Shown: one piece after another, positions 1 to 58,388 of the stretch
Position numbering within the stretch: the first letter of the stretch is position 1
Layout: each line of letters opens with the position of its first letter
IMG/VR virus record: IMGVR_UViG_3300035182_000466
Location: 106,062 to 170,061 of that record
Length of the DNA stretch: 64,000 bases
Direction: 5' to 3' (one strand)
From: a virus
Program-made: the position numbers and the translations under genes
Notes under the pieces: model-generated
The model's database searches: none
What the model was told of the DNA's origin: nothing
Seen by the model: only the letters and a program-made list of their open reading frames with translations

Positions 1-1782
1 CAAGATCTTAGAGCACGAGACTCTTGGAAGGACCTTGTTGATGGTAGTACCGGAGAAACCTTAATAGAACATAATGCTGCTATTGGGACATTTCTACAGC
101 AATCTTTAGAGACTGCCTTTAAAGAGTGTTTTACAGATACAGCCTCCAGAGATAGTTCTATTTATGCAATAACTAGAATGTTGGGTATTAGAGTATCCAG
201 AAAATTACCTGGAGTGCAAAGTTGTAACATTCAAAGATCCAATATGCTTAACTTGCCTATAAGTAATTCATTGGTTATTCCAGAATTTTCACAGTTTACT
301 GTTGGTGATGATATTCCTTTTTATAATAGATCTACCTTGAACTTTGTAGAATCTAGTGCAACATTAAATAATGTTCTTTTATATCAAGGTAAAATTTATA
401 CTAAAAAGTATGTAAGCTCTGGAGAACCATTTCAGAGAATAATAATTCAATCATCCTCACCAATGTCTATATCAGATATAGATATAATTGTTTATGTTGG
501 AGATGAAAAATGGACTGTCGTTTATGATGGTTTATGGAATTATGGAATAGATGATAAAGTTGTAGCAGATTCTACTTTAGGTACTGGTGACGTTATTCTT
601 CAGTTTGGAAATGGCTATAATGGAGCATTACCTGCAACTAATCAAGATATAACCGTACAGTATGTAGAGACTTATGGTGCAAAATTAAGTATGATAGGTT
701 CAGGTGCAAACGTTCAATTAAATAATCAACTTAATGGATACTCTATATCTGGTAATATTATACGACTACCAGATGTTACCCAAATTTTTACTACCTTAGG
801 TGGTTTGAGTTTAACACTAAGTAGTTTAACTAATCCTACTCCAGTAGTTTATTTACCTTCTGGAAATAGTTGGGACATAACTAATGTTGGTTTTCAATTA
901 GAAGAGAGTAATGGAGGACTTGCTTTAATAACAGGAGTAAATGGAAATGAAGCAACCTTATCTGTAGTGTCTCCTTTTACGACAAAAAATTTATCTGCTG
1001 GATCCTGGTTTATGTCAGTACCAACTACGGGTCAAGATGAAAAACCTAGTTATTATTATAAGGTTCTATCACCTAACATGAGCAAGGCAATGGGAAGAGC
1101 TGTTACTACTCAAGACCACTCTGCTGTTATAATGCAATACAGCGGAATAAGTGATGTTTTGGTAAGAACAGAAAAAGATATAATAAAAGCTTTGACGCAA
1201 AAAATACAGAAAAGTGCAGAGGTTATAGCTAGAGAACAGTCTCTCAATATTTATAACGGTGTGGATTACTATGAAATAGTTCCAGATATACATCCTGCAC
1301 TTCAAAATGTGATATGGGTTTCATTTTTAACATCTAGTGGATTAAGTTTTAATTCACTTCAGAATACCGAATTTTTAAACTGGTTTAGATCTAAGCAATT
1401 TGATGGAACTACTATTAAACTTCAGGTTCCTACTAAAAACATGGTAGATTTATCAATTTCTTTATATTGCAATTCTGGAAAAGATCTTCTGGTAGCACAA
1501 TCATTGGCAGAGACTGCAATAAGAAAGATGTTTGCAACAGACAAGCCTATGTTGAGCAAAAAGATTGTAATGAATGATATTTATGATACTTTAAGTAATA
1601 GCCTTGATGACTTTTTAGATTATTCTTCTATAGAGGCTAAGTTAGATGGAGTAGCAACCTTTGAGTTAGTTCCAAAGAATGCAGCTATAGATGACTTCGG
1701 TTTTCCTGTACCACCTGGATACTTATATTTGCAGAATTTATCTATAACAGCCAAAACTACAGATAGAAGAAGTAAAAGGTAG
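1..1782 (+). CDS. Baseplate wedge protein (T4 gp6/baseplate J-like), 5'-truncated by window edge
   Basis: Frame is open from base 1 (QDLRARDSWKDLVDGSTGETLIEHNAAIG...ECFTDTASRDSSIYAITRMLG), so the gene starts upstream of the 178 ATG. Motifs LQFGNG..G..P and RAVTTQDH resemble gp6-like wedges. Confidence 0.8.
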   Translation, partial: QDLRARDSWKDLVDGSTGETLIEHNAAIGTFLQQSLETAFKECFTDTASRDSSIYAITRMLGIRVSRKLPGVQSCNIQRSNMLNLPISNSLVIPEFSQFTVGDDIPFYNRSTLNFVESSATLNNVLLYQGKIYTKKYVSSGEPFQRIIIQSSSPMSISDIDIIVYVGDEKWTVVYDGLWNYGIDDKVVADSTLGTGDVILQFGNGYNGALPATNQDITVQYVETYGAKLSMIGSGANVQLNNQLNGYSISGNIIRLPDVTQIFTTLGGLSLTLSSLTNPTPVVYLPSGNSWDITNVGFQLEESNGGLALITGVNGNEATLSVVSPFTTKNLSAGSWFMSVPTTGQDEKPSYYYKVLSPNMSKAMGRAVTTQDHSAVIMQYSGISDVLVRTEKDIIKALTQKIQKSAEVIAREQSLNIYNGVDYYEIVPDIHPALQNVIWVSFLTSSGLSFNSLQNTEFLNWFRSKQFDGTTIKLQVPTKNMVDLSISLYCNSGKDLLVAQSLAETAIRKMFATDKPMLSKKIVMNDIYDTLSNSLDDFLDYSSIEAKLDGVATFELVPKNAAIDDFGFPVPPGYLYLQNLSITAKTTDRRSKR

Positions 1783-1788
1783 GATGTT

Positions 1789-3957
1789 ATGATTCCGACT
1801 AAAGCTAGCAATTGGGAATATATCTATTTAGATACTAATACTAACTTGTATGTTCCACATTACTATAACATAACTGATAGAGTAATGTTTGAAGATAATG
1901 AGTACATAGCTCAAGTAAGTCATTATGCTACTAGTTCTTTCACGCAAGACTACTTAAATGGATATTGGAAACGTTGGAATCTTATAAAGACTAGAGAATG
2001 GCTTCCAGGAACAATTTATGCATCAGGAGATAAAATTAAGTATGGTCATATAACATATATATGTAAATATGGTCATTTATCTCAAGACTTATTTAGTAAA
2101 GATCTTAGTGTAAATTTAGATAACTTAAACTTCGATTTTTTATATAAGAGAAATGATTATAACAAAGTTTCAAAATCTTTTCCTTGGGCAGGCATAAAAG
2201 TATATACCAAAGATGAATTAGTAATAGATAGAGATATAACATATAAGTGTTTACAAGATCACACAGTCAACACTCTTGCTGACATATATTCAACTAGACC
2301 TTTATATGGTGTAAATTGGAAAAGCTATTGGACTTTTACTATTGAAGAACCTAAAGATTTAAACACTCGTTGGGCGCAAGGTCGTATCTTTAATATTAAT
2401 GATCTGGTAGAAAATAATGGTAAGTTATATCTTTGTAAGAGCGCCTATAATGGATTATCTCCTGAGTATATAGATAATAATGAACCTGGAATGGGTTCTA
2501 CTTGGAAAGATTTTTGGGATGAATTTGTACTATGGGATGTAGAACTAACCAGATGTGATTATGTCAACTGGATGAGTGATGTACCATTTCTTCGTGATTA
2601 TTTAGAAGTTATTGATCTATTGCAAATAACTAATATAGATCATCCAATAGTCAAATTGACAAAATTGAGATCATTAGATACAGAAACAGAGCAGGAGATA
2701 TTAAAACTAACCACTAGCTTTTTAGGTTTTTCTTTCCTAGCCGAGTCTTCTTTAATAGATCCATCCTCATATTATCAATACATAAATTATTTGTCTATGT
2801 ATAAGAGTGAGTCTGGAACTGAATCTTACTTAAAATTTTTAAACTTTATAGTAAGACATGATTTAGATATACCTTCAAACGATACTCCTCTATCTCAGTA
2901 TATAGATAAAACTACAAAAGTTCCACTTTGGAAAATTAAAGAACTATATACTCATAATTATAAATCTTTTTGGACTAAAGAAGAAGTTATTTGTAAGTTA
3001 GGACTGAGCAAAAAATACTTTAAAACTACTTTCTTTAGATCTAATGGACAAACAGTATATAATATGTTTGAAACAGTTGAATATATGGGTTGGGTTTGGA
3101 GTAGTCTTGTTGATAATAATGAAGACTTACCTACTTTAACTTCTCCTTATTGGACCAGAGTTTCTGCTCTACCTGAATCTGAATTTGTAGATAGTTCATT
3201 ACTTTCAAATTTTGATGATAGTGAGGTTTTGTATTTAAATTTTCCTATGACATTTAGAGGAACTTGGTTCAAGCTAGAGTCTTATTATTTGAATGATACA
3301 GTAATATATAATGGTAAAATATGGAACTGTATTAAAGCTGGTGCTAAAGGATATATACCTTATGATGGAAGTTCTTACTGGAGTAAGGTTTCAGATATAA
3401 ATCTTTTTGAAGTGTATAATAGTTATAAAACATACTATGTAGATGATAAAGTAATGTACAACAATGAAATTTGGCAGTGTACTAAAGCCAGAATAAAAGG
3501 TCAAGAACCATCTGACTCCAGTAGTTCTTGGAACAAGCTCTCTGACTCCAGTTCTGTAGCTAGTTCTGAATTTAAGAATTATGGTTATTATAGAACCAAT
3601 AGAGTATATTTATATAGATCTGATGATATGCGTAAGATGGGTTCTGACTTAGAAAAGTATCCTGAATATGCAGGTATAACTAAAATATTTTATGAATTAT
3701 CAATTGCAGCTAAAGTAATTTATATAAAGGAGATTGGATATGATTATGTATTATCTAACTTACCAAGACTTGTTCAGATAAATCCAGATAATAGTGAATT
3801 TGAAGAAGCTCACTATATACCATTTATTTGTAATAAAAAAATTACATATCCTACACCTGTAAGAGTAGGCAATTGGGTACCAGATGACCTTAGATCTTGT
3901 GTAACTTGTCCACAAAAATTATTTACACCTAATATTACCGAAAGTCAACAACTGTAA
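1789..3957 (+). CDS. Baseplate/tail protein with multiple CBM5/12-like (Y..GD.V.Y.G..Y.C) repeats and a central tail-protein-I-like segment
   Basis: Repeats such as IYASGDKIKYGHITYIC, YYLNDTVIYNGKIWNC and YYVDDKVMYNNEIWQC; central LGFSF...YKSESGTES; lies between the wedge and fibre genes. Confidence 0.6.
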   Translation: MIPTKASNWEYIYLDTNTNLYVPHYYNITDRVMFEDNEYIAQVSHYATSSFTQDYLNGYWKRWNLIKTREWLPGTIYASGDKIKYGHITYICKYGHLSQDLFSKDLSVNLDNLNFDFLYKRNDYNKVSKSFPWAGIKVYTKDELVIDRDITYKCLQDHTVNTLADIYSTRPLYGVNWKSYWTFTIEEPKDLNTRWAQGRIFNINDLVENNGKLYLCKSAYNGLSPEYIDNNEPGMGSTWKDFWDEFVLWDVELTRCDYVNWMSDVPFLRDYLEVIDLLQITNIDHPIVKLTKLRSLDTETEQEILKLTTSFLGFSFLAESSLIDPSSYYQYINYLSMYKSESGTESYLKFLNFIVRHDLDIPSNDTPLSQYIDKTTKVPLWKIKELYTHNYKSFWTKEEVICKLGLSKKYFKTTFFRSNGQTVYNMFETVEYMGWVWSSLVDNNEDLPTLTSPYWTRVSALPESEFVDSSLLSNFDDSEVLYLNFPMTFRGTWFKLESYYLNDTVIYNGKIWNCIKAGAKGYIPYDGSSYWSKVSDINLFEVYNSYKTYYVDDKVMYNNEIWQCTKARIKGQEPSDSSSSWNKLSDSSSVASSEFKNYGYYRTNRVYLYRSDDMRKMGSDLEKYPEYAGITKIFYELSIAAKVIYIKEIGYDYVLSNLPRLVQINPDNSEFEEAHYIPFICNKKITYPTPVRVGNWVPDDLRSCVTCPQKLFTPNITESQQL

Positions 3958-3960
3958 ATA
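3951..3960 (+). promoter_or_regulatory. ACTGTAAATA motif (putative phage promoter) upstream of the tail fibre/radical SAM operon
   Basis: Copy of a recurring sense-oriented motif, followed by an AGGAGG RBS and the ATG at 3988. Confidence 0.5.
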
Positions 3961-3987
3961 TAATATAATATAATAGGAGGTTTTACT

Positions 3988-6552
3988 ATGGCTACAATGC
4001 AAATAACTAAAGTCGGTTATGAGCAAATAACCGATGCACTACAAAGTGGTTATACTTTAAAGATTACTAAAGTTAAATTTGGTACTGGATCAGATTATGT
4101 TCCAACAGCAGGAGATGTTGAACTTCATGGTCATATTCTATATGAAGGCCCAATTAGTAATGTGGATGTAGTAAATGATGATATAATTGATTTTCTTTGT
4201 ATTTGCCCTGAGAACTTAGGTGTAGACACAGTCACTATTGGTGAAGTTGGATTATATATAGAAAATACTGATGGAACCGATACTCTATTTGCATTAGCTT
4301 GTTATCCTTATCCTTTCAGTAAAGCACCAAATATGCGGTATAAAACACACTGCTTAGTTTTGAATCCATATATAAGCAATGCAGTAGATTTAACTTTAAC
4401 TTGGACTATGAGTTTACCACGAGTTAATTATTATGGAGATTTACCTAATCCGGAAAGAACTGGAGATAATGCTTATATAGTAAACCACGGATTTACAGAT
4501 AGTGGTGTTTTAAAACCTTCTTTAGTTACACGATACGCAATGTCTGATACAGGCCCACTAGCGTGGGGGCTCTTAAATGGAGATTTATATTATGATGGCT
4601 ATGTTACTCCAGTTGAAGGGGATCCAGCCAGTTTTAAATTAGCTGGTTTACCATTGTCTAACTTTCCTGCCATAAATATTAAATTTGCTTTTGTTTATGT
4701 TTGTGAAGGTACAGGAAGAACTCAGTGTAGAGCATTATCTTATAATGCATCACTAGATTGCTTTACTACTTTGTATGAAGACTTTTCCTTAACTGTTAAG
4801 GGATCTGGAACTCCTTCCTATGAAGGAGCTTGTAATACAGGTAACACTGCAGGTACTGTGTTGCATATAACTAATCTAGATTCAAGCTCAAGAGTATTGA
4901 TTTGGACAGCGGTAAGGATGGAAGCTACTGGTCTTGTTTTTAGAGGTCGTTGGGATGCAGCAGCAGGATATCCATCTAGTCCTATTCCAGGATCATACTG
5001 GGTAGTATCTGGTAATGGTATTATAAATGGAACCTGTTATCAAGTTGGAGACTGGATGGTATTTTCTGGTGATGAACAGTGGGATAAGATTGATAACACT
5101 GAACTACCTTACTTACTATATCGTGGTGATTGGGATGCTTCTACCGGTCAAGCTCCACCGCCACAACCAATACAATATTATTGGCAGAATATTCGTCAAG
5201 GACATTATTGGGTAATAAGTACTGCTGGAGTTATAGCAGGAGTATGGTTTGATGTTGATGATTGGATAGTATGGAATGGAACAAAGTGGCAAAAAGTAGA
5301 TAATAAAGGTGGTCTAAAATTTAGAGGGTATCATGCTATAGTATCTGATAATCATGTGCCTACTGTTTTAACTGATGGTGACTATTGGATTGTGTCCCAA
5401 AAAGGAACTATTAATGGTATTCGTTATGATGTTAAAGATATCCTAGTATGGACAGGTTCAACCTTTATGCGGTTGATAAATCAAGAAGGCTTAGTTTATC
5501 AAGGTCTTTATGACCCAAGCATAACTGGTGAATATCCAGTGCCTTTCAAATCTGGTGATCTTTGGATTGTTAAAAAGAATGGTGAAGTAACTAATCAAGA
5601 TGATCCTACAGTTAAAGATAACTTATATGTAGATGATTTTTTAGTAGCTATTCCAACTACTAGTACTACTTTTACCTGTGATACTAATAGTAATAGTACC
5701 ATTTTAAATACTACTGGTAATATGCGTTGGAAAGTAATTTCAGCAGGAGGATTAACCTATCGTGGTACTCATGATGCATCTACTGGTATTATGCCAATTC
5801 CCCTGCATAAAGGAGACTATTGGGTTATTACTAATCCAGGTTATTTAAATGGTGTATATTATGAAACAAATGATTGGATTACATTTAATGGATCTTCTTT
5901 TAATAAAGTTAGTAATAGAGAAGGTCTTAAATATCAAGGACTGTGGGAAATTGGTACCAACGGATCTGTACCTCCAACTCATCCAGTAGAAGGTGACTTT
6001 TGGATTGTTAGCTCTCCTGGATCTGTACAAGGCACTGGATATAGTATAGGTGATTGGTTAGTTTGGACAAATTCTGGATGGACTAACGTTGATAATAGAC
6101 CTGGATTCTATTATAGAGGAGACTGGAATCCAACTTCAGGAACAAATCCAGTTGCATTAAAAGAAGGCGATTTGTATCGTATTAACGCTGCTGGTACATT
6201 CAATGGCGAGCATGTAGCTCCTGGAGACTTCATTGTTTGGACAACAGCAGGATGGCTCCTGATCTTAGGAACTCTTGACCGTATAGATATTCCTAGATAT
6301 AACATAACCACTAATGATTACATGCTCCGTGAGTATGAATATGCAGATGCTTCTACTGGTAAAGTATATAACTCAGCTAAAAACCTTAAGATAGGATTTG
6401 CATTAGAGATTTTATTTAAAGATAGAACTAATCCAGTGTATGTACCATATCTTGAACAATTGAACGAATTAGAGTTTTGTGGTTGTACTTGTACTTGTAC
6501 TTGCCAATGTACGGCACCTTGTAACTGTTGTAAAGGCGCAGGTCCAGTTTAA
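3988..6552 (+). CDS. Tail fibre: N-terminal DUF3751-like baseplate-attachment domain, about 7 Trp/Gly-rich ~58-aa repeats, Cys-rich C-terminus
   Basis: N-terminus ITKVG...ITKVKFGTG...IGEVGLY...LFA; repeats GLxYRGxWD...GDYWIVS..G...Y..GDW.VW.G..W..VDN; ends FCGCTCTCTCQCTAPCNCCKGAGPV. Confidence 0.8.
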   Translation: MATMQITKVGYEQITDALQSGYTLKITKVKFGTGSDYVPTAGDVELHGHILYEGPISNVDVVNDDIIDFLCICPENLGVDTVTIGEVGLYIENTDGTDTLFALACYPYPFSKAPNMRYKTHCLVLNPYISNAVDLTLTWTMSLPRVNYYGDLPNPERTGDNAYIVNHGFTDSGVLKPSLVTRYAMSDTGPLAWGLLNGDLYYDGYVTPVEGDPASFKLAGLPLSNFPAINIKFAFVYVCEGTGRTQCRALSYNASLDCFTTLYEDFSLTVKGSGTPSYEGACNTGNTAGTVLHITNLDSSSRVLIWTAVRMEATGLVFRGRWDAAAGYPSSPIPGSYWVVSGNGIINGTCYQVGDWMVFSGDEQWDKIDNTELPYLLYRGDWDASTGQAPPPQPIQYYWQNIRQGHYWVISTAGVIAGVWFDVDDWIVWNGTKWQKVDNKGGLKFRGYHAIVSDNHVPTVLTDGDYWIVSQKGTINGIRYDVKDILVWTGSTFMRLINQEGLVYQGLYDPSITGEYPVPFKSGDLWIVKKNGEVTNQDDPTVKDNLYVDDFLVAIPTTSTTFTCDTNSNSTILNTTGNMRWKVISAGGLTYRGTHDASTGIMPIPLHKGDYWVITNPGYLNGVYYETNDWITFNGSSFNKVSNREGLKYQGLWEIGTNGSVPPTHPVEGDFWIVSSPGSVQGTGYSIGDWLVWTNSGWTNVDNRPGFYYRGDWNPTSGTNPVALKEGDLYRINAAGTFNGEHVAPGDFIVWTTAGWLLILGTLDRIDIPRYNITTNDYMLREYEYADASTGKVYNSAKNLKIGFALEILFKDRTNPVYVPYLEQLNELEFCGCTCTCTCQCTAPCNCCKGAGPV
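6478..6531 (+). repeat. Cys-X repeat tract (TGTACT x3 core) encoding 9 Cys in 18 residues
   Basis: TGT GGT TGT ACT TGT ACT TGT ACT TGC CAA TGT ACG GCA CCT TGT AAC TGT TGT. Confidence 0.95.
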
Positions 6553-6569
6553 ATTAAAGTGAGGATAAT

Positions 6570-7307
6570 ATGTCAAGAGTATATTTTTGTGTTAAAAACA
6601 GTTATTCTTCTACCACTCCTAAACCTGCGAATATTACGTCTGTAGGAGATGTAACTATAACAGTATCTAATTCAAACATAATAATAAATCAACCCGATGT
6701 TCTTATAGACTCAGATAGAGATATACATTTAATAGTTGCTTCAGATTTTACATTTAATACTCCTGGTCTAGTTCAGACTTCGCATGTTTTTGGTTCAAAG
6801 GATTATTTTGATAAAGTACAGGTTTATTATTATAATAATACCTATTTCTATTATTTTGAAAGTGTAGAACATTACTGTGCCGTATATGAGCGTCACTTTT
6901 CTACAGTTTATTTTAGACATGATCCTACTAAAATATTCTGTGAAGTAACATCTAATGCGATAGCTATTCAAGGAGCAGGTAAATTTGTTTTTCTAATCAG
7001 AGGTCTTTTTGTTTCAGAAAATGTAGTTACCTTGAAAATGCAAGATGAAGAAAAAACTGAAATACCAATATCTTTAATATCAGATAGTAATACACAAACT
7101 ACGTTAAACTCTATAAATACTTCTTTCAATACGTTAGAAAATGGTACTATAGTAGATTCCTTTATTCAAAGTCGTGGATTCTTTTTAGAGCTAGACCCCG
7201 ATGTTTTAAAAGGTGAAGGTTATCTAATAATAGAGAATGAATTACCTACAAGTTTTGCAATAACCGGTGTATCTAAGACTAGAAGTAAAATGATGTTCTT
7301 TATTTAA
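6570..7307 (+). CDS. Hypothetical protein between the tail fibre and radical SAM genes
   Basis: 245-aa ORF with GAGG RBS; no motif recognised. Confidence 0.7.
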   Translation: MSRVYFCVKNSYSSTTPKPANITSVGDVTITVSNSNIIINQPDVLIDSDRDIHLIVASDFTFNTPGLVQTSHVFGSKDYFDKVQVYYYNNTYFYYFESVEHYCAVYERHFSTVYFRHDPTKIFCEVTSNAIAIQGAGKFVFLIRGLFVSENVVTLKMQDEEKTEIPISLISDSNTQTTLNSINTSFNTLENGTIVDSFIQSRGFFLELDPDVLKGEGYLIIENELPTSFAITGVSKTRSKMMFFI

Positions 7308-7341
7308 AATAATAACTGATTACTGGTAAAGGAAAAATAAA

Positions 7342-8706
7342 ATGATAACTAAACATGATTTAGAAGATGATATTTTAACCTTTTCTAAAGATAGGTCTTT
7401 TAGGTATTTTAAAACAAAAGGCGGATTATTAGTAAAGAGCTTTCTTAATACAAATAGATACTATATAGAAAGTGCTGATGATGATTTACCTATTGCCTCT
7501 GTTTGTTTTGGAGAAGAAATATTTACTAATGATGAATTAGATCAACTATATGATATTATAAATCAAGATAAAAAACAGTTACGCCAAGATATATTTAGTT
7601 TAGGAATATTCAATTCTACCTGTAATGTTAGTTGTGAATATTGTACTAATGGCGATAGAACTAAAATGCTCCAGAAGCTACCAAGTATAGAACAACTACA
7701 AGAGGTCTTTAATACTTATAACATCAAATATGTAAGTGTAGCTGGAGGAGAACCATTAGTAGAATGGCCCCAACTAAAAAATATTCTGACATTTTTAGAT
7801 GAACAACCTGGTATAAAAACAATGGAAATCTTATCAAATGGAAGATTACTTAAGCCTGAGATACTTGAGTTTATATCTAGTTTAACACGAGACGTTAAGT
7901 TATTTTTAACTGTTACTACAAAAGAAGACTCAAAAGATCACATGAATATACAAGAGCTTTATGAGTTATATCCGAAGTTGGTAGGACACCCTGTTGAAAT
8001 AAATATTGTTATAGACCACTATAAATTTGATGTAGATAGATTTTTATCTTTAATTGTAGAAATGGTTAAAAAAGGAAATTTTGGAGTAACCTTAAATGCA
8101 ATACGCAGAGAAGACGCAACAGAAGAAGGACTATTGCAATTAATAAATAATGTAAAAGCAATGATCCGAAGTCCTCATATTCGTGATTTGTCTTGCCCCG
8201 AAGACGATAATCCAACAACACCTTTTTATTATGCAACCGGAAGTTGTAGTAGTGGGATGATTTGTGCTTCATCTAAAGGTTATTCCTTTTGTTTGGCCTC
8301 TATGCCACAATATATAGAACAAACTGTAGAAGGTGTAAAGAATATAAGATATATGCAGTCTAAGCATGGATGTGAATCTTGTGATGCTTATTTTGATGAT
8401 GTCTTATGTAAGAATAATATTTTCTCTGGTAGTTGTTATAAACTAGAAAGATTCAACTGTTTAACTTGTCCTAATTTATGCCAATGCCAATATCAGAAGT
8501 GTTATTATCTTTCAGTGAAAAAAATAACAAATCCAGTTGCAGATTATAATAGAGACTTAAGATGTATAGCTTATGTTTTAATTTTCAATCTTATTGACTA
8601 TATAAAACATCAACATATAGATTATTCTGATAGTAATAGTGTGTATAAAATAGACTCAAATAAAATACCGGAGAAATTAGTAAATGAATATTTTTCTACT
8701 AAATAA
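7342..8706 (+). CDS. Radical SAM protein with an extended Cys-rich SPASM-like C-terminus
   Basis: CNVSCEYC (CX3CX2C), AGGEPL, SNG; 14 Cys in the C-terminal third. Confidence 0.9.
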   Translation: MITKHDLEDDILTFSKDRSFRYFKTKGGLLVKSFLNTNRYYIESADDDLPIASVCFGEEIFTNDELDQLYDIINQDKKQLRQDIFSLGIFNSTCNVSCEYCTNGDRTKMLQKLPSIEQLQEVFNTYNIKYVSVAGGEPLVEWPQLKNILTFLDEQPGIKTMEILSNGRLLKPEILEFISSLTRDVKLFLTVTTKEDSKDHMNIQELYELYPKLVGHPVEINIVIDHYKFDVDRFLSLIVEMVKKGNFGVTLNAIRREDATEEGLLQLINNVKAMIRSPHIRDLSCPEDDNPTTPFYYATGSCSSGMICASSKGYSFCLASMPQYIEQTVEGVKNIRYMQSKHGCESCDAYFDDVLCKNNIFSGSCYKLERFNCLTCPNLCQCQYQKCYYLSVKKITNPVADYNRDLRCIAYVLIFNLIDYIKHQHIDYSDSNSVYKIDSNKIPEKLVNEYFSTK

Positions 8707-9802
8707 ACATCACACTTGCTACCTATCAAATTCTGAGTTAAACTTTCTTAGGTTCTGTGCAGAGAAGCTTAAAGGTCTTGAATATGTAGAACAACCAGAG
8801 CTAGCAGATTTAATTGTTTATTCCGGATGTTCTGTTTCTGACGATTATATCATGAGGAATAATAAAGAGCTGGATAAACTTATAGCGCTATATCCAGAAA
8901 AGAAATTTATGTTATTTGGATGTGCTGCACCTTATGGTGAGCACTCAAATGTAATTAGTATTGTACATCTAGAACATTCTAAATTAGATGATCTCTTTAA
9001 TTTACCTTCTGGTTCAATAAAGCAACTTCACTCTTATTATTTCACCTATGAGAAAATTTTTGAAGATCAGAAAGCTATTTTTATATCTAGTGGTTGTGCT
9101 AGTAATTGTACTTATTGTAATATTAAGTTATCTAGACCTAAATTAAAATCAATGCCTTTAGAAGATATTCTTGAAAGAGTGAATCAGTTTTATGCAACTA
9201 ATCATCATTATGTCTTATGCTCAGATGACTGTGGTTCATATGGATTAGATATAGGGACTAATTTTGCAGTTTTACTAGAAACTTTAGTTTTAAATTTTCC
9301 TGATATACTTATAAATATAAAGTGGGTTAATCCACAATGGTTTATAAAGTATTATGATGTTATAAAGAAATATGTGGATACAGGTAATGTTATAGGTATA
9401 GAATGTCCTATTCAGTCAGGATCAGATAGAATATTAAAGTTAATGAATCGTCCATATACTGTAGAAGAAGTCATTGATAAATGGACCAAGATAAAAGGAA
9501 AGTTACTATCTTCTAAAGGTACAGTCATAGTAAACTTTCCTGGAGAAACTTGGGAAGAATTTTTAGCTTCTATGTCTTTACGTAAACATTATGAAATTTT
9601 TATAGTATATATTTTCAAACTAAACAAAAATACAGCTAGTGCAAATCTTCCAGATAGACGAACAGAGGAGGATGCTAAGAGACGACTTGAATATCTAAAA
9701 GAACATTATCCAGACATATACTATGGTGGAGATCTTATAGATAATAACTTAGACCGCTGTATAGACAAACCTTATATGGTAGATAACTTAGAATATGATT
9801 GA
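8684..9802 (+). CDS. MiaB/RimO-family radical SAM methylthiotransferase-like protein lacking a TRAM domain
   Basis: UPF0004-type Cys (TCYLSN, ADLIVYSGCSV, FGC), ISSGCASNCTYC, PIQSGSDRILKLMNRPYT, IVNFPGETWEEF. Confidence 0.85.
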   Translation: MNIFLLNKHHTCYLSNSELNFLRFCAEKLKGLEYVEQPELADLIVYSGCSVSDDYIMRNNKELDKLIALYPEKKFMLFGCAAPYGEHSNVISIVHLEHSKLDDLFNLPSGSIKQLHSYYFTYEKIFEDQKAIFISSGCASNCTYCNIKLSRPKLKSMPLEDILERVNQFYATNHHYVLCSDDCGSYGLDIGTNFAVLLETLVLNFPDILINIKWVNPQWFIKYYDVIKKYVDTGNVIGIECPIQSGSDRILKLMNRPYTVEEVIDKWTKIKGKLLSSKGTVIVNFPGETWEEFLASMSLRKHYEIFIVYIFKLNKNTASANLPDRRTEEDAKRRLEYLKEHYPDIYYGGDLIDNNLDRCIDKPYMVDNLEYD

Positions 9803-11015
9803 TACTTTATCCATAAAAATGGTAGATATTCCAGGTGTTCTTGAATATCATTCTTCGACGCATTCTTTCAATTATTGTCCTGAAGTTATACAGACTGAAA
9901 GAATAAAATTTGAAGATAGAAATGAAATACAACAAGACTTCTCGAAAGAATATCTTAATAAACAAAAAGAAGAATCAGATAAAGTACCAATTATAGGTAC
10001 AGTAACCATTACTAATGAATGTAACATGGGATGTTCTTTTTGTTATGCTCATAAAAATGAGCAACTAGGAAAAATAAATTTAGACTATCTTATACGATTA
10101 AAGGAAAAGCTTCCTAAAGAATGTTTTGATCATCTTATTTTATCTGGTGGTGAACCATTATTATATTTTGATACGGTTAAGTCAGTAAGAAAGTTATACT
10201 CAAAGGTTGTAATATATACTAATGGTAGTCTTTTAACAGAAGATATTATTAAATGGTGTATAGATACAAAGACATGGTTATACATAACGTTAGATTTTGA
10301 TATTCCAGATTTTATTGGTCATCACTCTAGTCCTGTAAGAGATTTACTAGAAAAGTACATTTATAAGTATCCTAAATTGTTAGATATAATATCTTTTGGG
10401 ACAGTTCTTCCAATAGAAGAACTTATAAATTTGCCTAAGCTTAGGCAACAACAAAAACCTTTTGAGTCAGGTATATGGAGACTATACAATTTTTTAGATC
10501 CAAAAGATAAAAATTATGTAGTTAGTTCTGAAGGTTTTGATCTTGAAATGAGTAATATAGAAACTGGTTCTATTAGTCTTCAAGAATCAATATTTTTTAG
10601 ATATTTGAACTATGTACAAACAGCTTCTACTAATGAATACAACTATAGTTGTTGTGGAAATTCATTAGCCCTAACACCCAGTGGAAACTTAACTATCTGT
10701 AATGAGTTATCAAGTTTACCTGAGTCTCGTTTAAAAAATACAAAAGTATGGTCAATAGATTCATTAGATTTAGAAGAAGTTAAACAAGAACAATTAAGAG
10801 TAGGTAAATACGGTATTAAAAGTTTTTGTGGTTCATGTATTATGAAATATTTTTGTTCAGGATTGTGTTGGCAGAAAAAGGGTAATCTTAAACATCAATG
10901 TCAAATGGCACGCTTCGGAATAGCATATAGTATGTATTATAAGTTTAACTATTTGAATACTAATTCAATACTAAATCCGAATACAAAGTTATCAGAAATC
11001 TTAAGAGATAGGTAA
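9795..11015 (+). CDS. Radical SAM/SPASM protein
   Basis: CNMGCSFC, SGGEPLL, TNG; SPASM-type C...TPSGNLTIC and CGSCIMKYFCSGLC...C. Confidence 0.9.
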   Translation: MIDTLSIKMVDIPGVLEYHSSTHSFNYCPEVIQTERIKFEDRNEIQQDFSKEYLNKQKEESDKVPIIGTVTITNECNMGCSFCYAHKNEQLGKINLDYLIRLKEKLPKECFDHLILSGGEPLLYFDTVKSVRKLYSKVVIYTNGSLLTEDIIKWCIDTKTWLYITLDFDIPDFIGHHSSPVRDLLEKYIYKYPKLLDIISFGTVLPIEELINLPKLRQQQKPFESGIWRLYNFLDPKDKNYVVSSEGFDLEMSNIETGSISLQESIFFRYLNYVQTASTNEYNYSCCGNSLALTPSGNLTICNELSSLPESRLKNTKVWSIDSLDLEEVKQEQLRVGKYGIKSFCGSCIMKYFCSGLCWQKKGNLKHQCQMARFGIAYSMYYKFNYLNTNSILNPNTKLSEILRDR

Positions 11016-11022
11016 TATATTT

Positions 11023-12291
11023 ATGTCTTCATCAAAAATTTTAGTAAATGCTATTGGTATAAAAGATAATTCTACGGGATTTGCTATCTTATATGTTCCA
11101 GAATTTCATTTATTTTTAAAGTCTGAAATACGTCAAAATAAACCTGTAGAATTTTATACTAATTATTCAATGCCTGTACTTTGTACTCATCAAAATGAGA
11201 TATATGAAGAGTACAATAAACTAGAAACTCAGGCAGTAAATAAAATTCCTAACATAGGTTATGTAATAGTTAATAATGTCTGTAATATGAATTGTACCTT
11301 TTGTTATGCTGCGGCTAATACTAATCATAAAAGAGTAGACATTTCTGATCTAGAGCACCTGTCTAAGATATTGCCCAAAAATTCGTTTAGAAAAGTAATT
11401 ATTTCTGGAGGAGAACCTTTATTAGACTTTGATCTTGTAAAACAAATAAGAACATTTTTTGATGAAATGACTATAAACTCTAATGGAATGCTTCTTACAG
11501 AAGATATAGCTAATTGGTTAGTAGAAACAAAGACAAAAATGTATATCGCCTTAGATTATGAGATTAAAGATTTTGAAGGACATGACTTTAATGCTAAAGC
11601 GCATGTAGAAAGTATAATCGCTAAAGTTCCAGAAGTTCTTCCATTTATAGAAGTCGCTGTAACTTACCCTAGTGATAAACTAGATGAGTTAAAAGATATT
11701 AGAACTCAAAATCTTCCATTTGAAAAAGAACTGACCCACGATTTTAATTACATTAAAGGAAAGGATCCTTTAGTTTTAACTAAATCTATATTTGAAAAAG
11801 AAATAGAAAGAATAGAAAGAGATGAAATTTCATTACAAGAATCTATCTTTCATAAACCTCTTAAATATATACGAAATACTTATAACTGGAGACTTAATAT
11901 AGAGTCATGCTCTCCAGCCGTACATTTAAATCATCTTGGAGATTTACATCTATGTCAGGTTAGAGCCTCCAATACAAATAGACCTGAAGAGTATGAGAAA
12001 GATGTTATCTGTAAAGCTAAAGATTTTAATTTAGACATATATAGACAAAGATCCAACAAAGATAAAAAGATTGGAGTTTGCACAATAGATAAAAATTGTA
12101 ACTGTAGATGGTTTTGTGGAAATATATGTTGGGCTAATATAAAACATAATAAACATAATTGTGAAGTTCTTAAATACTCGTTATTCTATTCTATGTATTT
12201 AGTTCATAATTATCTTTCTATGGAAGGTTTTAGTTTATTAAATTTAGATAGATTTTTCAATTCAAAACTAAAAGGATTGAACTATGTCTGA
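11023..12291 (+). CDS. Radical SAM/SPASM protein (paralogue of 9795-11015)
   Basis: CNMNCTFC, SGGEPLL, SNG; C...HLGDLHLC and CNCRWFCGNICW...C; shares ISLQESIF with the previous gene. Confidence 0.9.
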   Translation: MSSSKILVNAIGIKDNSTGFAILYVPEFHLFLKSEIRQNKPVEFYTNYSMPVLCTHQNEIYEEYNKLETQAVNKIPNIGYVIVNNVCNMNCTFCYAAANTNHKRVDISDLEHLSKILPKNSFRKVIISGGEPLLDFDLVKQIRTFFDEMTINSNGMLLTEDIANWLVETKTKMYIALDYEIKDFEGHDFNAKAHVESIIAKVPEVLPFIEVAVTYPSDKLDELKDIRTQNLPFEKELTHDFNYIKGKDPLVLTKSIFEKEIERIERDEISLQESIFHKPLKYIRNTYNWRLNIESCSPAVHLNHLGDLHLCQVRASNTNRPEEYEKDVICKAKDFNLDIYRQRSNKDKKIGVCTIDKNCNCRWFCGNICWANIKHNKHNCEVLKYSLFYSMYLVHNYLSMEGFSLLNLDRFFNSKLKGLNYV

Positions 12292-15200
12292 TATTCGTCC
12301 TGTACTAAGTATTTTAGAAAAACCTGAAACCTTAAATAAAAGTAAGCAATGTTCTTTTACCTTTAAGTCATCTAAACCTTTGAAATATGTCTGGTGTGTT
12401 TTGGATAATAATCCAAGTTTTAAACTATATCCATCAAAAGATTATCCAGAAGGTGATATTGCTATTTTATCTTTAACCTATGATGATTCTGATGATAGAG
12501 TTAAACACGAGCTAACAGTTCAAGCAGTAGATACAGATGATAATCTTGAGATATATAAAAATGTAATAGTTTGGACTAATGTTTTTATACCTATACAGTC
12601 TACATTAGTAGAACATCCTTCTGATCCAGATTTAGACTTAGCAAGTTATTTTCTAATTACTACAAATAAAACTGTATTGGGAGTAAGATATTCCTTAAAT
12701 AATAATCCTTATGTTTTTGTCAAACCTTCAGATAGAGTTTCTGATAACAAGACAGTAGATATTTCATTATATGATCTATCAGAAAGATCATATACGATAA
12801 GATATAAAGCTGTAGATGAATTTGGATTCGAAGAATTAACTGAACATGAATTTACTTGGAATAAAGTAGTACGTCCTATTACTACAATAGTAAATATATC
12901 TGAAACAAACGATCCAAAAGTAATAGAGTTATCTGTAAATAAACAAGTTGCATATATTGAAAGTTATCATTATTACGGTGAAGATAAAGAATCTTTTAGC
13001 GAAATTTGTTCAGAAGTAAACTCCTCTGGACAAGAAAGATTCTACTTTAGAATACCACAACCTTTTGAAGGTAAAAATGAAGTACAATTTACAGCTGTAG
13101 ATACTAAAGGTTACAGAGAATTAGAACCCGTTGTTTATACTTGGTATGAAGATAAAACAGTTTTATATTCTACCTTTATTGAGACACCAGCAAAAGTATC
13201 ACAGATTACAGATTCTAAATTTACTATTGTAACTAATAAACCAGTCGATCATATAGAATATACTTTAGACGATCAACCGGAGAATAAAATATACCCTTGG
13301 CCTGAAGATGTAACTAATAAAACGTTCAAGATAACATTTACATCTATGCAAGAAGGGTTTCATAATCTATCTATAAGAGCAGTAGATGGGTCTGGATATT
13401 TGGAGGATGAGGCACGTGTTTATTCATGGAAAGTAGAAGATCCACCAGTTTCAAATATAATAAAGTACCCAATTAGTCCTAGTACAGAATCAACTGCTAC
13501 CTTTAAAATTGTTGCTAACAAACCATTGAGTCATGCATTATACTCGTTGAACGGATCGTCTTGGAAAGTATTTAATATAGATCCTAATGACTCAACTAAG
13601 ACAAGTGCAAGTATAACAATATCTAATTTAAAAAATGGCGATTATACTATACAGATAAAAGCAGTAGATTTATTTGGAGCTGTGGAGAGAGAATCAACTG
13701 AAAAATCTTGGAGTGTAGAAGGTATTGAAGTTGTTTATCCAAATGTAGGATATGGTTCATCTAAAACAATCTTACCAGATGGAGTTACAGAAGCATTTAG
13801 ATTTCACCCATCTCCAGGTGTATATTTTCCAGAGAGCTTACTTGAGTTACCATCTGTTAGATCAATAATATATCCAGATACATTTATTGTAACATTTCCC
13901 GAAAAGTTTTCTAATCAAACTTCAGGAGTATTTACATTTTCATCTACTAGAATTGGAGCAACCTACCAGATTAGTTTAGATGGTTCTGAGTGGAAAGATG
14001 TAGGTAATCTATATAAATTTAATGATCTAGTTTTAGGCTCTCATTTACTTAAAGTTAGATCTATAGATAGAGCTGGGAATATTGATCCATCACCAGCAGA
14101 GTATTCTTGGAGTATAGACACTAAAAAACCAGTTTCTACCTTTGTAGAAACTCCACCTAATATATCTATCTCACAGGAAGCATCTATAAGAATAGAGGTA
14201 GATAAACCAGTTCAGTACGAGTTGTACTCTTTAGATAATTCTATATGGTTAAAGTCTTATCCTTTAGAGTCAGATCCAGATAATAGAACGATATTAGTAG
14301 AATTATATAATCTAAATTCTGGACCGCATAATTTTAGAGTAAAGGCTTGTGATATATATGGTAATATAGAAGTACCAGAAAAGTATTATAACTGGTTTGT
14401 AAATACAGATAGGACTCCACCTGATACTATTATAACTACTATAATTCCTGAATATACTAATAAAGTTAACTGGGATATAGACTTTATGTCACCTAAACTT
14501 GGTTGCACTTTTGAAGTAGCTTTAGACGTAACATTATCTAATACAGATATACGATATGGTGAATGGGTGTCTGCGAAAAGTCCTTATATTCTTTCTGATT
14601 TAGCTGATGGACATTATGTGATAAAGGTTAGAGCGATTGATCTATTTGGAGATATAGATGTTACACCTGCTCAATTAGCTTGGAATATAGATACAGTTCC
14701 ACCAAAATTATTTTTTGTTACAAAGCCGACAGGACCAAATGGAACATTTGAAGTTGTCTCAAATAAAACAAATTGCAGCTATCATTTTATTTATAATGAT
14801 AGTGATACAGAAAACGTAGTATACAGTCCTATCATACCATATAGCAATTTACCTGAAGGAGTTAATATTGTAAAAATTTATGCTAAAGATATGGCAGGAA
14901 ATTCTGGAGATGTTATTTCTTATACTTGGACTATTGATTCAGTAACACCTAATACCTTTATTGATACTTATCCAATAGATAATAGCTCAAGTGGGCAGTT
15001 TACTTATCACGCAGATAAACCTAATTGTGTCTTTGAAGTTACTTTGGACTCAGTTACAAGTTTTAAAGAAAGTCCTTTTACTTTCACTAATTTATCTTCA
15101 GGTTTTCATACCTTTTCAGTTAGAGCAAAGGACTTAAATGGAAATTTTGATGTTAATCCCAAAACATATACTTGGGAAGTAAAGATTTTAAGTACGATAA

Positions 15201-37800: not shown

Positions 37801-37995
37801 TTTTAAAGAAGTCATCATATTATAAAATGCATTTGTTTTCGCCGTAATTTCTTTTTTAGGACTAACACTAGCAATTGTTGAAGCTACTCTACTAAACATA
37901 TCTTCAGGTTTTTCAATTACTTTACCTGTCGCATCTTTAATAAGATAGCGTTTCTCAAGTACAGTCCTAGCATTTTGTGTAAGTTCCAGTTTCAT
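34867..37995 (-). CDS. nrdJ: Class II (B12-dependent) ribonucleotide reductase, intein-containing, with C-terminal TSCPD/Zn-ribbon
   Basis: [28 protein letters not shown][intein][43 protein letters not shown]...CHVCGYSEC. Confidence 0.93.
36235..37191 (-). mobile_element. Intein (319 aa) with LAGLIDADG homing endonuclease, inserted at the catalytic Cys of NrdJ
   Basis: STNP|CVTGDT...CTPKHKF...GFYSGDG...FAGLVDSDG...[21 protein letters not shown]|CGEQ. Confidence 0.92.
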
Positions 37996-57556: not shown

Positions 57557-57631
57557 TGGCTCCCGAAGTAGGACTCGAACCTACAACCTAATGATTAACA
57601 GTCATTTGCTCCACCATTGAGCTATTCGGGA
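57557..57631 (-). tRNA. tRNA-Asn(GTT)
   Basis: TCCCGAA acceptor, anticodon loop CTGTTAA, GGTTCGAGTCC, encoded CCA. Confidence 0.95.
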
Positions 57632-57675
57632 GTGTAAAATAATGACAACCACTCTAAAATATAATTGTCATTATA

Positions 57676-57762
57676 TGGTGCGGGTAGGGAGACTTGAACT
57701 CCCACAACCTTACGGTCAACGGATTTTGAGTCCGGTGCGTCTTCCTATTCCGCCATACCCGC
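57676..57762 (-). tRNA. tRNA-Leu(CAA)
   Basis: GCGGGTA acceptor, loop CTCAAAA, long variable arm, encoded CCA. Confidence 0.95.
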
Positions 57763-57770
57763 ATATACTA

Positions 57771-58139: not shown

Positions 58140-58388
58140 TGTTTCCTCCCACTAGGTTTAGTTACCTAATGGAAGTATTCTTCTTGTCCTCTATACATAA
58201 GTATCTCCTTATCCTAGTCTCTCCTAAAAGTAACACCACTTTAACGTGATATTCTTATGAAGAAAAATAGTCTACAGGTGTAGCCTAAATAAAATTATTT
58301 TCCTTTAGTCTTATCTTTCTTTGGTTTCTTAGCTTCACGTCCACCTTTGTCCTTGTTTCCCATTACTGTTCTCCTTATAAGTTTTTAT

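Follow-up and report, generated by a model that had tools for sequence, protein, structure and literature searches.

We consider it reasonably probable that the window (the whole stretch of DNA analysed here, 64,000 nucleotides from the 170-kb record of an uncultured large phage) carries a RiPP-like maturation cassette, whose substrate would be the C-terminal cysteine ladder of the phage's own tail fibre, bridged by thioethers with the aid of a helper protein and a methylthiolation-type step. That the phage modifies the tip of its host-binding fibre is very probable, because ladder and enzymes are paired in every related phage contig that could be read, and the modification is most likely a cross-linking. 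RiPP-like thioether cross-linking of the fibre tip is the best reading since the structural model of one of the enzymes (P0005) is closest to CteB, a Cys-to-Thr thioether synthase. The first-pass annotation had made the same core inference, namely that the adjoining radical SAM enzymes act on the Cys-rich end of the fibre, with a precursor fused to a structural protein; it is supported by this pairing, by a background of about zero, and by folds and motifs typical of thioether maturases. That the ladder is the substrate remains an inference, as do the bond type and the chemistry: neither a thioether nor a methylthio group has been seen so far, and the evidence includes neither biochemical nor proteomic data. 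No published description of such a system was found in the literature.

Gene content of the cassette

The genes of the cassette and their neighbours are listed in Table 1. The predicted wedge and CBM5/12 genes place the cassette within a baseplate/fibre module. The tight packing claimed for the junctions (overlaps of 23, 8 and 8 nt, and a single 7-nt gap) was reproduced from the ORF coordinates; the gaps between P0001 and P0002 and between P0002 and P0003 are 17 and 34 nt. All four cassette enzymes pass the Pfam gathering score for Radical_SAM. The enzyme set proposed by the first-pass annotation stands, but not the order that it implied: the MiaB/RimO-like gene comes second among the four enzymes, not last. 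The full seven-Cys SPASM motif is present in P0005 and P0006, and the C-terminal domain of P0003 is SPASM-like. The 1191-aa protein that follows shares 8 nt with the 3' end of P0006, and a Cys-rich tract was looked for in it and not found. A fifth radical SAM gene lies in the same genome away from the cassette (43041-44024). For an anaerobic host there are weak hints only.

Table 1. Features of the proposed maturation cassette and adjoining genes (positions in the window)
Feature	Position	Strand	Evidence
Baseplate wedge subunit	178-1782	+	phrog_219, E 6.9e-23
Tail protein with CBM5/12 modules, 722 aa	1789-3957	+	PF02839, E 1.1e-17; phrog_14098
P0001, tail-fibre protein, 854 aa	3988-6552	+	ORF translation, PF12571, PHROG
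Cys ladder, putative core (substrate) segment, P0001 residues 831-854	6478-6549	+	Translation
P0002, orphan ORF, 245 aa	6570-7307	+	No family match
P0003, radical SAM enzyme, 454 aa, CX3CX2C	7342-8706	+	PF04055, 39.8 bits
P0004, MiaB/RimO-like radical SAM enzyme, 372 aa	8684-9802	+	TIGR00089, PF04055, PF00919
P0005, radical SAM/SPASM enzyme, 406 aa	9795-11015	+	Pfam Radical_SAM, SPASM motif, model
P0006, radical SAM/SPASM enzyme, 422 aa, P0005 paralogue	11023-12291	+	Pfam Radical_SAM, 35% identity to P0005
Fibre/adhesin-like protein, 1191 aa; Ig-like, Y_Y_Y and CarboxypepD_reg domains	12284-15859	+	Domain matches

The tail fibre and its cysteine ladder

P0001 is identified as a tail fibre by a match to PF12571 (22.6 bits, just under the cut-off of 23), by matches to three PHROG tail-fibre families (phrog_1162, phrog_3737, and phrog_1780), and by its place after the wedge gene and the CBM5/12 tail protein. 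It has a tail-collar-fibre-type N-terminus, some 7 to 8 GDYW...GDW...W repeats, a pre-ladder segment (...NPVYVPY...), and the ladder. The Cys-rich end reported for this protein is real: its stop-free ORF terminates in CGCTCTCTCQCTAPCNCCKGAGPV, the exact C-terminus of the translation being ...EFCGCTCTCTCQCTAPCNCCKGAGPV. The ladder segment reads CGCTCTCTCQCT-APCNCC-KGAGPV, that is (Cys-X)6, here alternating Cys-Thr, followed by P-C-N-C-C and a GxGPV end; the i, i+2 spacing of the Cys is strict in P0001 and its relatives. Among all frames of more than 60 residues in the 170-kb record, none other contains a Cys window as dense as the fibre tail with its 9 Cys in 24 residues; the only two denser windows lie in stop-to-stop frames that are 51 and 60 residues long. 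Such density, together with the conservation of the tract at the protein level across eight diverged lineages, cannot be put down to chance. No other substrate candidate emerged: none of the remaining real ORFs of the record reaches the Cys density of the fibre tail, and the intergenic gaps measure 7-34 nt.

The next gene, P0002, is preceded by a good Shine-Dalgarno sequence (GAGG) and stands where a gene for a fibre-assembly or helper protein would be expected. It has no match in Pfam, NCBIfam or PHROG; proteins of 239-275 aa stand at the same position in lineages L003, L006, L134, and L303, and P0002 shares 24% identity (E 1e-4) with the one in L003.

Pairing of ladder and enzymes across lineages

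The P0005/P0006 family is tiny: a search of 1.84 billion proteins gave 22 cluster representatives at E<=1e-30. Co-occurrence of ladder fibres and adjacent radical SAM genes had been suggested as a check, and it was borne out: wherever the DNA upstream of P0005/P0006-family enzymes could be read, in seven of seven lineages (the window, L003-5, L006, L134, L303, L304, and L305), it directly encodes a protein that ends in a (Cys-X)n ladder as the preceding gene. Homologous clusters without a Cys-rich fibre, named beforehand as a refutation, were not encountered in these seven lineages. The fibre bodies differ and are unrelated or only partly related (P0001 and the ladder-tailed fibre of L134 share 45% identity over 437 aa), and the ladder is conserved in register in 9 proteins from 8 lineages, with Thr as the most common residue between the Cys.

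The eighth lineage, L083, is a lambda-like contig found solely by a DNA pattern for CTCTCTC. Its tail module, which includes a gpJ-type 1208-aa protein, encodes a 191-aa protein ending in CCECECTCTCTCTCTCTCTCTCTEQCCSECDCGD, and the gene of a SPASM maturase overlaps this ladder gene. The L083 ladder continues straight from three HxH motifs (GHYHVF, GHYHYV, and AHTHIV). It is the only independent case (n=1) of the reverse test, in which ladder fibres are picked regardless of enzymes, and the enzyme is present. As background, a single ladder-ended ORF of at least 100 residues, apparently spurious, turned up in 1.7 Mb of sequence from 160 generic radical-SAM loci. P0005/P0006-family enzymes were not found outside ladder cassettes, and a comparison with one genome per species from 185,579 prokaryote species gave no orthologue among the matches listed.

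The radical SAM enzymes

P0005 comprises an RRE-like N-terminal beta domain (residues 1-60), a radical SAM core (C76, C80, C83), and a SPASM domain (C287, C302, C345, C348, C354, C358, C369) whose seven-Cys motif is conserved in the 22 family members. The orthologues of P0006 in L003 and L303 are 39% and 38% identical to P0006. The best structural match of the AlphaFold model of P0005 (pLDDT 88.2) is CteB 5why (Z 23.5, rmsd 3.9, 335 residues aligned, model residues 1-385), in an alignment that takes in the N-terminal leader-binding (RRE) region; further matches are ChlB (Z 21.8), anSME (Z 20.3, rmsd 3.5, 313 residues), and EpeE (Z 15.4). Since the alignments begin at model residue 1 for CteB and TigE and at 63-65 for anSME, the N-terminal domain is matched by the former two and not by anSME. 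Judged by predicted fold and by motif, P0005 and P0006 thus appear to group with the thioether-forming peptide maturases. Every named maturase family has a curated cut-off far above the scores of the enzymes (P0005 reaches 37 vs 425 bits on the SCIFF model TIGR03974, 35 vs 340 on PapB, and 20 vs 350 on CXXX-repeat), and transfer of function therefore rests on fold and context. SPASM enzymes also perform epimerisation, C-C bond formation, and other reactions. Two homologues are labelled 'sulfatase maturation enzyme AslB' by a JGI source.

P0003 carries its CX3CX2C motif at residues 94-101 and has a very Cys-rich C-terminal domain; its L003 orthologue is 32.5% identical over 446 aligned aa, and rS417 of L134 is a distant relative. 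P0004 shares with RimO (the uS12 Asp88 beta-methylthiotransferase; PDB 4JC0/2QGQ) and with MiaB/MtaB a three-Cys UPF0004-type N-domain (C12, C49, C80) and the radical SAM core (CX3CX2C, 138-145), both sets of cluster-binding Cys being retained. It scores 149.2 bits on TIGR00089 (profile positions 25-358 of 429), 69.4 bits on PF04055, and 22 bits on PF00919, and among relatives of solved structure RimO is the best (72 bits), followed by MiaB (61 bits). Unlike this family, however, it stays below every curated cut-off (251 bits for TIGR00089), is encoded inside a fibre cassette, and lacks a TRAM domain in the profile/domain comparison. The TRAM domain binds RNA in MiaB and MtaB, and RimO is, as far as is known, the member of the family that modifies a protein. 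An orthologue of P0004 stays with the cassette in L003-5 (33% identity in L003); as most cassettes lack the methylthiotransferase, we regard it as accessory.

Comparison with known maturation systems

CteB, the SCIFF maturase, links Cys to Thr via a C-gamma thioether in a Cys-rich substrate (PMC8326336). The CteB/CteA system (SCIFF ranthipeptide, Clostridium thermocellum; PDB 5WGG/5WHY) resembles the phage cassette in the adjoining maturase and substrate genes, and CteB resembles P0005 in the RRE-like N-domain, the barrel, and the seven-Cys SPASM domain. The cassette studied here differs in its phage setting, in a putative substrate formed by the C-terminus of a virion protein of 854 aa instead of a peptide of about 45 aa, in having Cys at every second residue, and in its two to three paralogous enzymes plus methylthiotransferase. 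PapB/PapA (freyrasin; NCBIfam NF047865) forms repeated Cys-to-acceptor thioether bridges along a repetitive core, albeit on a CX3D motif where the phages have CXC. The PapB model is the best match of the L083 maturase beside its CT ladder (208.6 bits), which is still under the cut-off of 340, and the window enzymes reach 31-35 bits; the L083 enzyme also matches TIGR04115 (140.5 bits), QhpD (136), and the SCIFF maturase (128). The CXXX-repeat system (maturase TIGR04115, targets TIGR04114/TIGR04117), comparable at the level of family models, again combines a SPASM maturase with a periodic Cys-repeat target, but the Cys period is 4 instead of 2, the window enzymes score 17-20 bits (cut-off 350), and the phage cassette has extra enzymes, including the methylthiotransferase. 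QhpD installs several Cys-to-Asp/Glu thioether bridges in QhpC, a subunit of quinohemoprotein amine dehydrogenase that stays in a functional complex, and so offers a precedent for structural, non-antibiotic use (PMC8326336). The ladders offer acceptor residues of this type in their terminal PC(N/E/D)C motif; QhpC, however, is a small dedicated subunit of a bacterial enzyme without phage link, and the QhpD model TIGR03906 (cut-off 453 bits) is not among the best 25 NCBIfam matches of P0005 or P0006, and gives 30 bits for rS435 of L006.

Alternative explanations

The enzymes might act on the ladder through non-thioether chemistry, such as anSME-like conversion of Cys to formylglycine (giving reactive aldehydes), L-to-D epimerisation, or C-C or C-O cross-links. 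The closeness in fold of P0005 to anSME and to the epimerase EpeE, the AslB name, and the three diverged paralogues, which suggest more than one reaction, leave room for this; we deem it unlikely in view of the CteB/TigE-type N-terminal domain, the absence of the sulfatase motif C/S-x-P/A-x-R from the P0001 tail in which it was searched, and the proximity of the L083 enzyme to the thioether synthases PapB, QhpD, and SCIFF. The make-up of Cys plus Thr, Asp, Glu, and Asn also fits known donors and acceptors (PMC8326336). Quite unlikely, too, is a ladder serving as metal- or Fe-S-binding module of a trimeric fibre tip, in which Cys on one beta-strand face would stand in for the HxH iron sites of the T4 long-fibre tip, with radical SAM proteins that assemble, insert or remodel a cluster or metal centre and form no C-S cross-links. 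The i, i+2 period does set all Cys on one beta-strand face, the L083 ladder does run on from HxH motifs of the type that binds iron in the long-fibre tip gp37 of T4, and the first-pass annotation listed metal/Fe-S loading as an option. Yet the nearest folds and the PapB-like L083 enzyme are maturases that cross-link peptides rather than proteins of cluster assembly, simple metal binding would not require as many as two to four radical enzymes of its own, and no SPASM enzyme is known to us to load a client protein with metal.

We give very little credence to the enzymes being auxiliary metabolic or host-takeover genes (tRNA/ribosome methylthiolation, cofactor or nucleotide chemistry) in a late operon beside an unrelated structural ladder. 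Radical SAM auxiliary genes do occur in phages (QueE, viperin-like; PHROG names), this genome has its fifth radical SAM gene, and the P0004 family is best known for tRNA modification; but P0004 has no RNA-binding TRAM domain, the adjacency of ladder and enzymes is kept in eight lineages despite changing fibre bodies, gene order, and phage type, no family member was found outside ladder cassettes, and the prokaryote genomes gave no orthologue among the matches listed. It is just as improbable that the fibre is a giant leader from which the modified Cys tail is cleaved and released as a free bioactive ranthipeptide or sactipeptide instead of staying on the virion. Many fibres do shed C-terminal chaperone domains, and the Cys-rich products of radical SAM enzymes known so far are small peptides that are released (PMC8326336). 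But a leader of 854 aa would to our knowledge be without precedent, no cassette read holds a protease or exporter gene, and the tract always lies at the extreme C-terminus of a tail-module protein, the site of receptor-binding tips.

Proposed mechanism

In the thioether cross-linking that we favour, the C-terminal tract of the newly made fibre, (Cys-Thr/X)6 and then P-C-N-C-C, would be unstructured, and P0005, P0006, and probably P0003 would dock just upstream of the ladder via the N-terminal RRE-like domain; the role of each paralogue is inferred. The SPASM enzymes would take hydrogen from the acceptor residues between the Cys, mainly Thr, and bond the carbon to a neighbouring Cys sulfur, giving a stack of redox-insensitive thioether bridges of the ranthionine or sactionine type. 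By analogy with RimO on Asp88 of S12, the TRAM-less P0004 may add sulfur-based tailoring, most likely beta-methylthiolation in the terminal PC(N/E)CC motif, and P0002 may be a conserved helper, either a chaperone/adaptor or a tip partner. The fibre tip would end up rigid and covalently knotted, its benefit to the virion being likewise an inference. If this is true, the fibre tip of a virion would be processed by a chemistry that until now has been known only for small peptides of bacteria.

Genomic setting of the ladder-ended fibre

The IMG/VR virus record is 170 kb long and estimated to be 63% complete; the window is its final 64 kb and has a GC content of about 30%. P0001, the protein that ends in a Cys-X tract (the ladder), is considered a putative tail fibre because its N-terminus resembles the tail-collar fibre domain PF12571 (22.6 bits, just below the cut-off of 23), because it matches the PHROG tail-fibre families 1162, 3737 and 1780 (E 4e-7 to 6e-5), and because of its neighbours: the baseplate wedge is encoded upstream, as is a tail protein with CBM5/12 modules, and a 1191-aa Ig-like/Y_Y_Y protein lies downstream of the cassette (the fibre gene with its adjacent radical SAM enzyme genes). 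The assignment is one of domain matches and module position, and presence in the virion is not shown. When the full record was scanned in six frames, no frame longer than 60 residues had a Cys window as dense as the fibre tail, with its 9 Cys in 24 residues; the two windows that exceed it come from stop-to-stop frames 51 and 60 residues long.

P0002 is separated from P0001 by 17 nt and from P0003 by 34 nt; P0003 and P0004 overlap by 23 nt, P0004 and P0005 by 8 nt, P0006 follows P0005 after 7 nt, and the gene for the 1191-aa protein overlaps P0006 by 8 nt. With gaps so small there is no space for a separate precursor gene. The first-pass annotation had described a tightly packed operon of an unknown ORF, three radical SAM/SPASM enzymes and finally a MiaB/RimO-like enzyme; its gene set and junctions are correct, but of the four enzymes the MiaB-like one is encoded second instead of last. 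With four enzymes, the gene set of the window is unusually rich. The 8.3-kb region had no match among GenBank phages by megablast, and scans for promoters and terminators were uninformative, promoter-like sites being fewer than in shuffled sequence.

Elsewhere in the window, the ribonucleotide reductase has its best phage relatives in Moorella, Bacteroides and Microcystis phages. Host searches with the baseplate and ribonucleotide reductase returned only distant relatives from mixed hosts, and the host is not identifiable from the reductase, the ligase or the tRNA genes. A fifth radical SAM gene, situated among early/replication genes, matches the SPASM family TIGR04133 weakly at its C-terminus (42.7 bits) and showed no neighbour rich in Cys.

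Features of the window and of related loci
Locus	Feature	Coordinates	Strand	Description
Window	P0001	3988-6552	+	Ladder-ended fibre, 854 aa, C-terminus ...LNELEFCGCTCTCTCQCTAPCNCCKGAGPV
Window	P0002			245 aa, no family
Window	P0003			454 aa, radical SAM, Cys-rich C-terminus
Window	P0004			372 aa, MiaB/RimO-like
Window	P0005			406 aa, radical SAM
Window	P0006			422 aa, radical SAM, 35% identical to P0005
Window	Fibre ending CC[KN]G[AS]GP[VI]	6535-6549		Cassette with MiaB/RimO-like enzyme
L003	Fibre ending CC[KN]G[AS]GP[VI]	5701-5715		Cassette with MiaB/RimO-like enzyme
L003-5	Ladder protein			407 aa, end CSCTCTCECTCTCPSPCECCNGSGPI; then 241-aa orphan, MiaB-like enzyme, three SPASM-type enzymes
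L006	Ladder protein			643 aa, after Baseplate_J, end CLCLCTCTCQCTCTCTCRCTCTSKCDCWD; then three radical SAM genes and 275-aa orphan
L134	Ladder protein			720 aa, end CSCTCTCTCTCPCTCQFYSPHSCCQGMM; then 250-aa orphan and two radical SAM genes
L083	Ladder protein	5539-6114	-	191 aa, downstream of gpJ-type gene in lambda-like tail module; HxH motifs GHYHVF, GHYHYV, AHTHIV directly ahead of ladder; end CCECECTCTCTCTCTCTCTCTCTEQCCSECDCGD
L083	Second enzyme	2898-4247	-	B12-binding radical SAM, PhpK-like (88 bits); not a methylthiotransferase
L303, L304, L305	Ladder-ended proteins			Two in tandem in L304; radical SAM genes directly downstream
L304	Two successive long-ladder proteins	2-373 and 2194-3537	+	CQCQCTCTCTCPCPCQCTCIAPCCG, CSCPCTCTCTCTCQCPCTCTCTCTLPGC; ahead of one radical SAM gene pair
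Window	NAD-dependent DNA ligase	17955-20402	+	N-terminal extension of ~165 aa
Window	Ribonucleotide reductase	34867-37995	-	1042 aa, Cys-rich C-terminus
Window	Fifth radical SAM gene	43041-44024	-	327 aa
Window	Three tRNA genes	57557-58463	-	Asn, Leu, Gly
L136	Seven consecutive CX3CX2C ORFs	4385-15049	+	290-kb IMG/VR contig; four ORFs with Cys-rich C-termini

Pairing of ladder and enzymes

The radical SAM enzyme P0005 has very few close relatives: three real homologues came from a word-seeded search of 5.8 billion proteins, and 22 matches at E<=1e-30 from an exhaustive profile search over 1.84 billion representatives, with a sharp drop thereafter. Among family members for which DNA is available, a ladder-ended protein accompanies the radical SAM genes in all seven lineages that could be read. 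This count leaves out L306, a contig too short to judge, and the contig of P0008, for which no DNA was available and which displays the same gene-size pattern as the ladder cassettes. A gene for a putative Cys-rich substrate adjoins a SPASM maturase gene, as in sactipeptide and ranthipeptide systems, the ladder-ended gene being directly upstream in the window and in seven other lineages. The fibre bodies are mostly unrelated among the seven lineages; the L134 ladder protein is 45% identical to P0001 across its N-terminal 437 residues. In L003-5 the genes behind the ladder protein all have window orthologues (24-42% identity) and are ordered differently. As two ladder proteins precede one enzyme pair in L304, one enzyme set may serve several substrates.

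For background we took 160 loci with generic radical SAM cores, among the matches listed from metagenome and genome collections; their 1.7 Mb held one ladder-ended ORF of at least 100 residues, apparently spurious. In the reverse direction, an IMG/VR DNA scan for CTCTCTC coding gave at least 119 loci, nearly all off-frame readings of simple repeats, and L083 is the genuine ladder case among the matches listed; all 39 loci from the scan for CTCTCQC coding were spurious. Co-occurrence found from the ladder, independently of the enzymes, therefore rests on this one case. The family alignment A2 retrieved one true orthologue from IMG/VR (L134) and, among the matches listed from metagenome and genome collections, only generic radical SAM cores. 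P0005 alone found no related locus in IMG/VR, and tblastn of P0005 and P0004 against GenBank phages gave only remote or generic matches. The run of CX3CX2C ORFs in L136 is unrelated to the P0005/P0006 family except for the radical SAM core.

Radical SAM/SPASM enzymes

All four enzymes, P0003 to P0006, carry CX3CX2C and exceed the PF04055 gathering cut-off of 29.5 bits (39.8, 69.4, 49.2 and 45.8 bits, respectively). A SPASM domain was recognized by the C-terminal seven-Cys motif CX9-15GX4C ... CX2CX5CX3C ... C, which holds two auxiliary clusters. The P0005/P0006 family meets this motif, C287 and C302 being invariant and C345, C348, C354, C358 and C369 conserved in at least 90% of 22 members; P0006 itself is without the C345 equivalent, and the Pfam SPASM model gave no match.

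The AlphaFold model of P0005, from a 22-sequence alignment, is confident (pLDDT 88.2). Its fold matches those of the SPASM enzymes CteB, ChlB and anSME (Z 20-23.5). Foldseek and VIA-align both put CteB on top (Z 23.5, rmsd 3.9, 335 residues aligned), ahead of ChlB (Z 21.8), anSME (Z 20.3), TigE (Z 19.3) and, at about Z 15, SuiB and the epimerase EpeE. CteB is a SCIFF maturase with an RRE and two auxiliary clusters that makes a Cys-to-Thr C-gamma thioether; QhpD installs Cys-Asp/Glu thioethers in a protein subunit, and anSME oxidises Cys or Ser to formylglycine (PMC8326336). The CteB alignment spans model residues 1-385, including the N-terminal beta-rich domain. The alignments of both CteB and TigE begin at residue 1. 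Residues 1-60, predicted as four strands and a helix (pLDDT about 90), may correspond to an RRE but fall short of the canonical length. For all its likeness in fold, P0005 falls far under the SCIFF maturase cut-off (TIGR03974, 37.4 against 425) and under those of the PapB family (NF047865, 35.3 against 340) and the CXXX-repeat maturase (TIGR04115, 17.4-19.7 against 350), its matches to named maturase models being confined to the radical SAM core. Membership of the window enzymes in the SCIFF, PapB, CXXX-repeat or QhpD (TIGR03906) families was rejected, their scores being far below the curated cut-offs.

In L083 the ladder gene is overlapped by a SPASM enzyme gene, and the B12-type enzyme then follows. 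This SPASM enzyme (PapB model 208.6 bits, CXXX-repeat 140.5, QhpD 136.2, SCIFF 128.4) is much nearer to named maturase families than the window enzymes are; from these scores, two different peptide-cross-linking SPASM branches adjoin the same Cys-Thr ladder.

MiaB/RimO-like enzyme and orphan protein

P0004 shares with MiaB, RimO and MtaB its two Cys sets (C12, C49 and C80 of the N-terminal UPF0004-type domain, for the auxiliary cluster; radical SAM C138/C142/C145), and its L003 orthologue (33% identity) has Cys at corresponding places by inspection. Unlike these enzymes, it has no TRAM domain, the protein ending 33 residues past the last aligned core position, and it scores below the TIGR00089 cut-off (149.2 bits, E 1.5e-43, against 251; profile positions 25-358 of 429 covered). 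PF00919 matches residues 30-83 weakly (22 bits, cut-off 27). The best solved relative is RimO (72 bits; MiaB 61), whose alignment ends at residue 355 of 438, and the L003 orthologue is shorter still (335 aa). Cassettes that include an enzyme of this type are those of the window, of L003-5 and perhaps of the P0008 contig.

For the orphan P0002, a word-seeded homologue search returned only P0002 itself, and the ESM Atlas gave no usable match. Its AlphaFold model (4-row alignment) is unusable (pLDDT 45.6), and complex prediction with the fibre tail (score 0.01) gave no verdict, counting neither for nor against binding.

Sequence of the ladder

In the aligned tails the ladder core is (C-X)n with 6 to about 12 units, X being mostly Thr and now and then Gln, Pro, Ser, Glu, Leu or Arg. 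Next come a short spacer and a terminal Cys cluster, often P/K/E-C-(N/E/D)-C-(C/W/G). Part of the window ladder is encoded by a 3.5-copy hexamer repeat; conservation across lineages is at the protein level. Upstream of the ladder, at a distance of 10-13 residues, five lineages share a hydrophobic strand, Y-[VIF]-P or the like, which is a candidate leader-like element for binding to an RRE as a beta strand; this is an inference without binding data. The ending CC[KN]G[AS]GP[VI] is absent from the five ladder fibres without a MiaB/RimO-like enzyme and may be a recognition or target site of the methylthiotransferase; as a sequence correlation in only two lineages, it is a lead and not a finding. 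The last 110 residues of P0001 retrieved only P0001 itself in a homologue search, and the tail alignment A1 found nothing in IMG/VR.

Proposed mechanism and alternatives

We consider it likely that the ladder is the substrate of the adjacent radical SAM enzymes. Under RiPP logic the whole fibre would serve as leader; the SPASM enzymes would link the sulfur of Cys to carbon atoms of the residues in between (giving thioethers with Thr, Asn, Asp or Glu), P0004 would contribute a methylthio-type tailoring step, and P0002 might give help of an undetermined kind. As to the main product, we lean with no great assurance towards thioether bridges, their formation being inferred. A further step, in which three SPASM paralogues and the methylthiotransferase would build a thioether stack within and between three fibre chains and so covalently lock a trimeric receptor-binding tip, is speculative and in our opinion improbable.

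Several other readings have to be weighed. The enzymes might apply other radical chemistry to the ladder, such as epimerisation or formylglycine formation; the latter draws on the closeness of the P0005 fold to anSME, yet the ladder tail has no Arg and no anSME substrate motif (C/S-x-P/A-x-R). The fold similarity being high, anSME-type chemistry is not excluded. Loading of the ladder with metal or Fe-S is kept alive by the HxH motifs immediately ahead of the L083 ladder, which are similar to the HxH sites that bind iron in the tip of the T4 long fibre. The modified tract might also be released as a peptide, like the short precursors of sactipeptides and ranthipeptides; instead of a short leader-plus-core precursor, however, the ladder forms the C-terminal end of tail-module proteins 191-854 aa long, and the cassettes hold no protease or exporter gene. 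Finally, the enzymes might belong to an auxiliary metabolism unrelated to the fibre.

Significance

So far, thioether formation by radical SAM/SPASM enzymes has been described for small secreted peptides and for a single bacterial enzyme subunit, QhpC. Full-text literature searching revealed no account of phage fibres or virions being modified by radical SAM enzymes; the nearest reports merely mention radical SAM genes among the contents of phage genomes and presume them to be metabolic or 'antibiotic' genes. The enzyme chemistry is known; the substrate class, a structural protein of the virion, and the biological use would be new. The hypothesis is directly testable and, if true, would provide a naturally fused substrate in which the leader is the whole protein, with enzymes that are easy to test, as well as new enzymes for protein stapling. 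The TRAM-less methylthiotransferase would then join RimO as just the second member of the family that acts on protein. For phage structural biology, the ladder would represent a new class of post-translational modification and a redox-independent substitute for disulfides in stabilising host-recognition tips. Should the locking between chains also prove true, this would be the first enzymatically cross-linked virion organelle, and the first case of RiPP chemistry, including protein methylthiolation away from the ribosome, building a virus particle.
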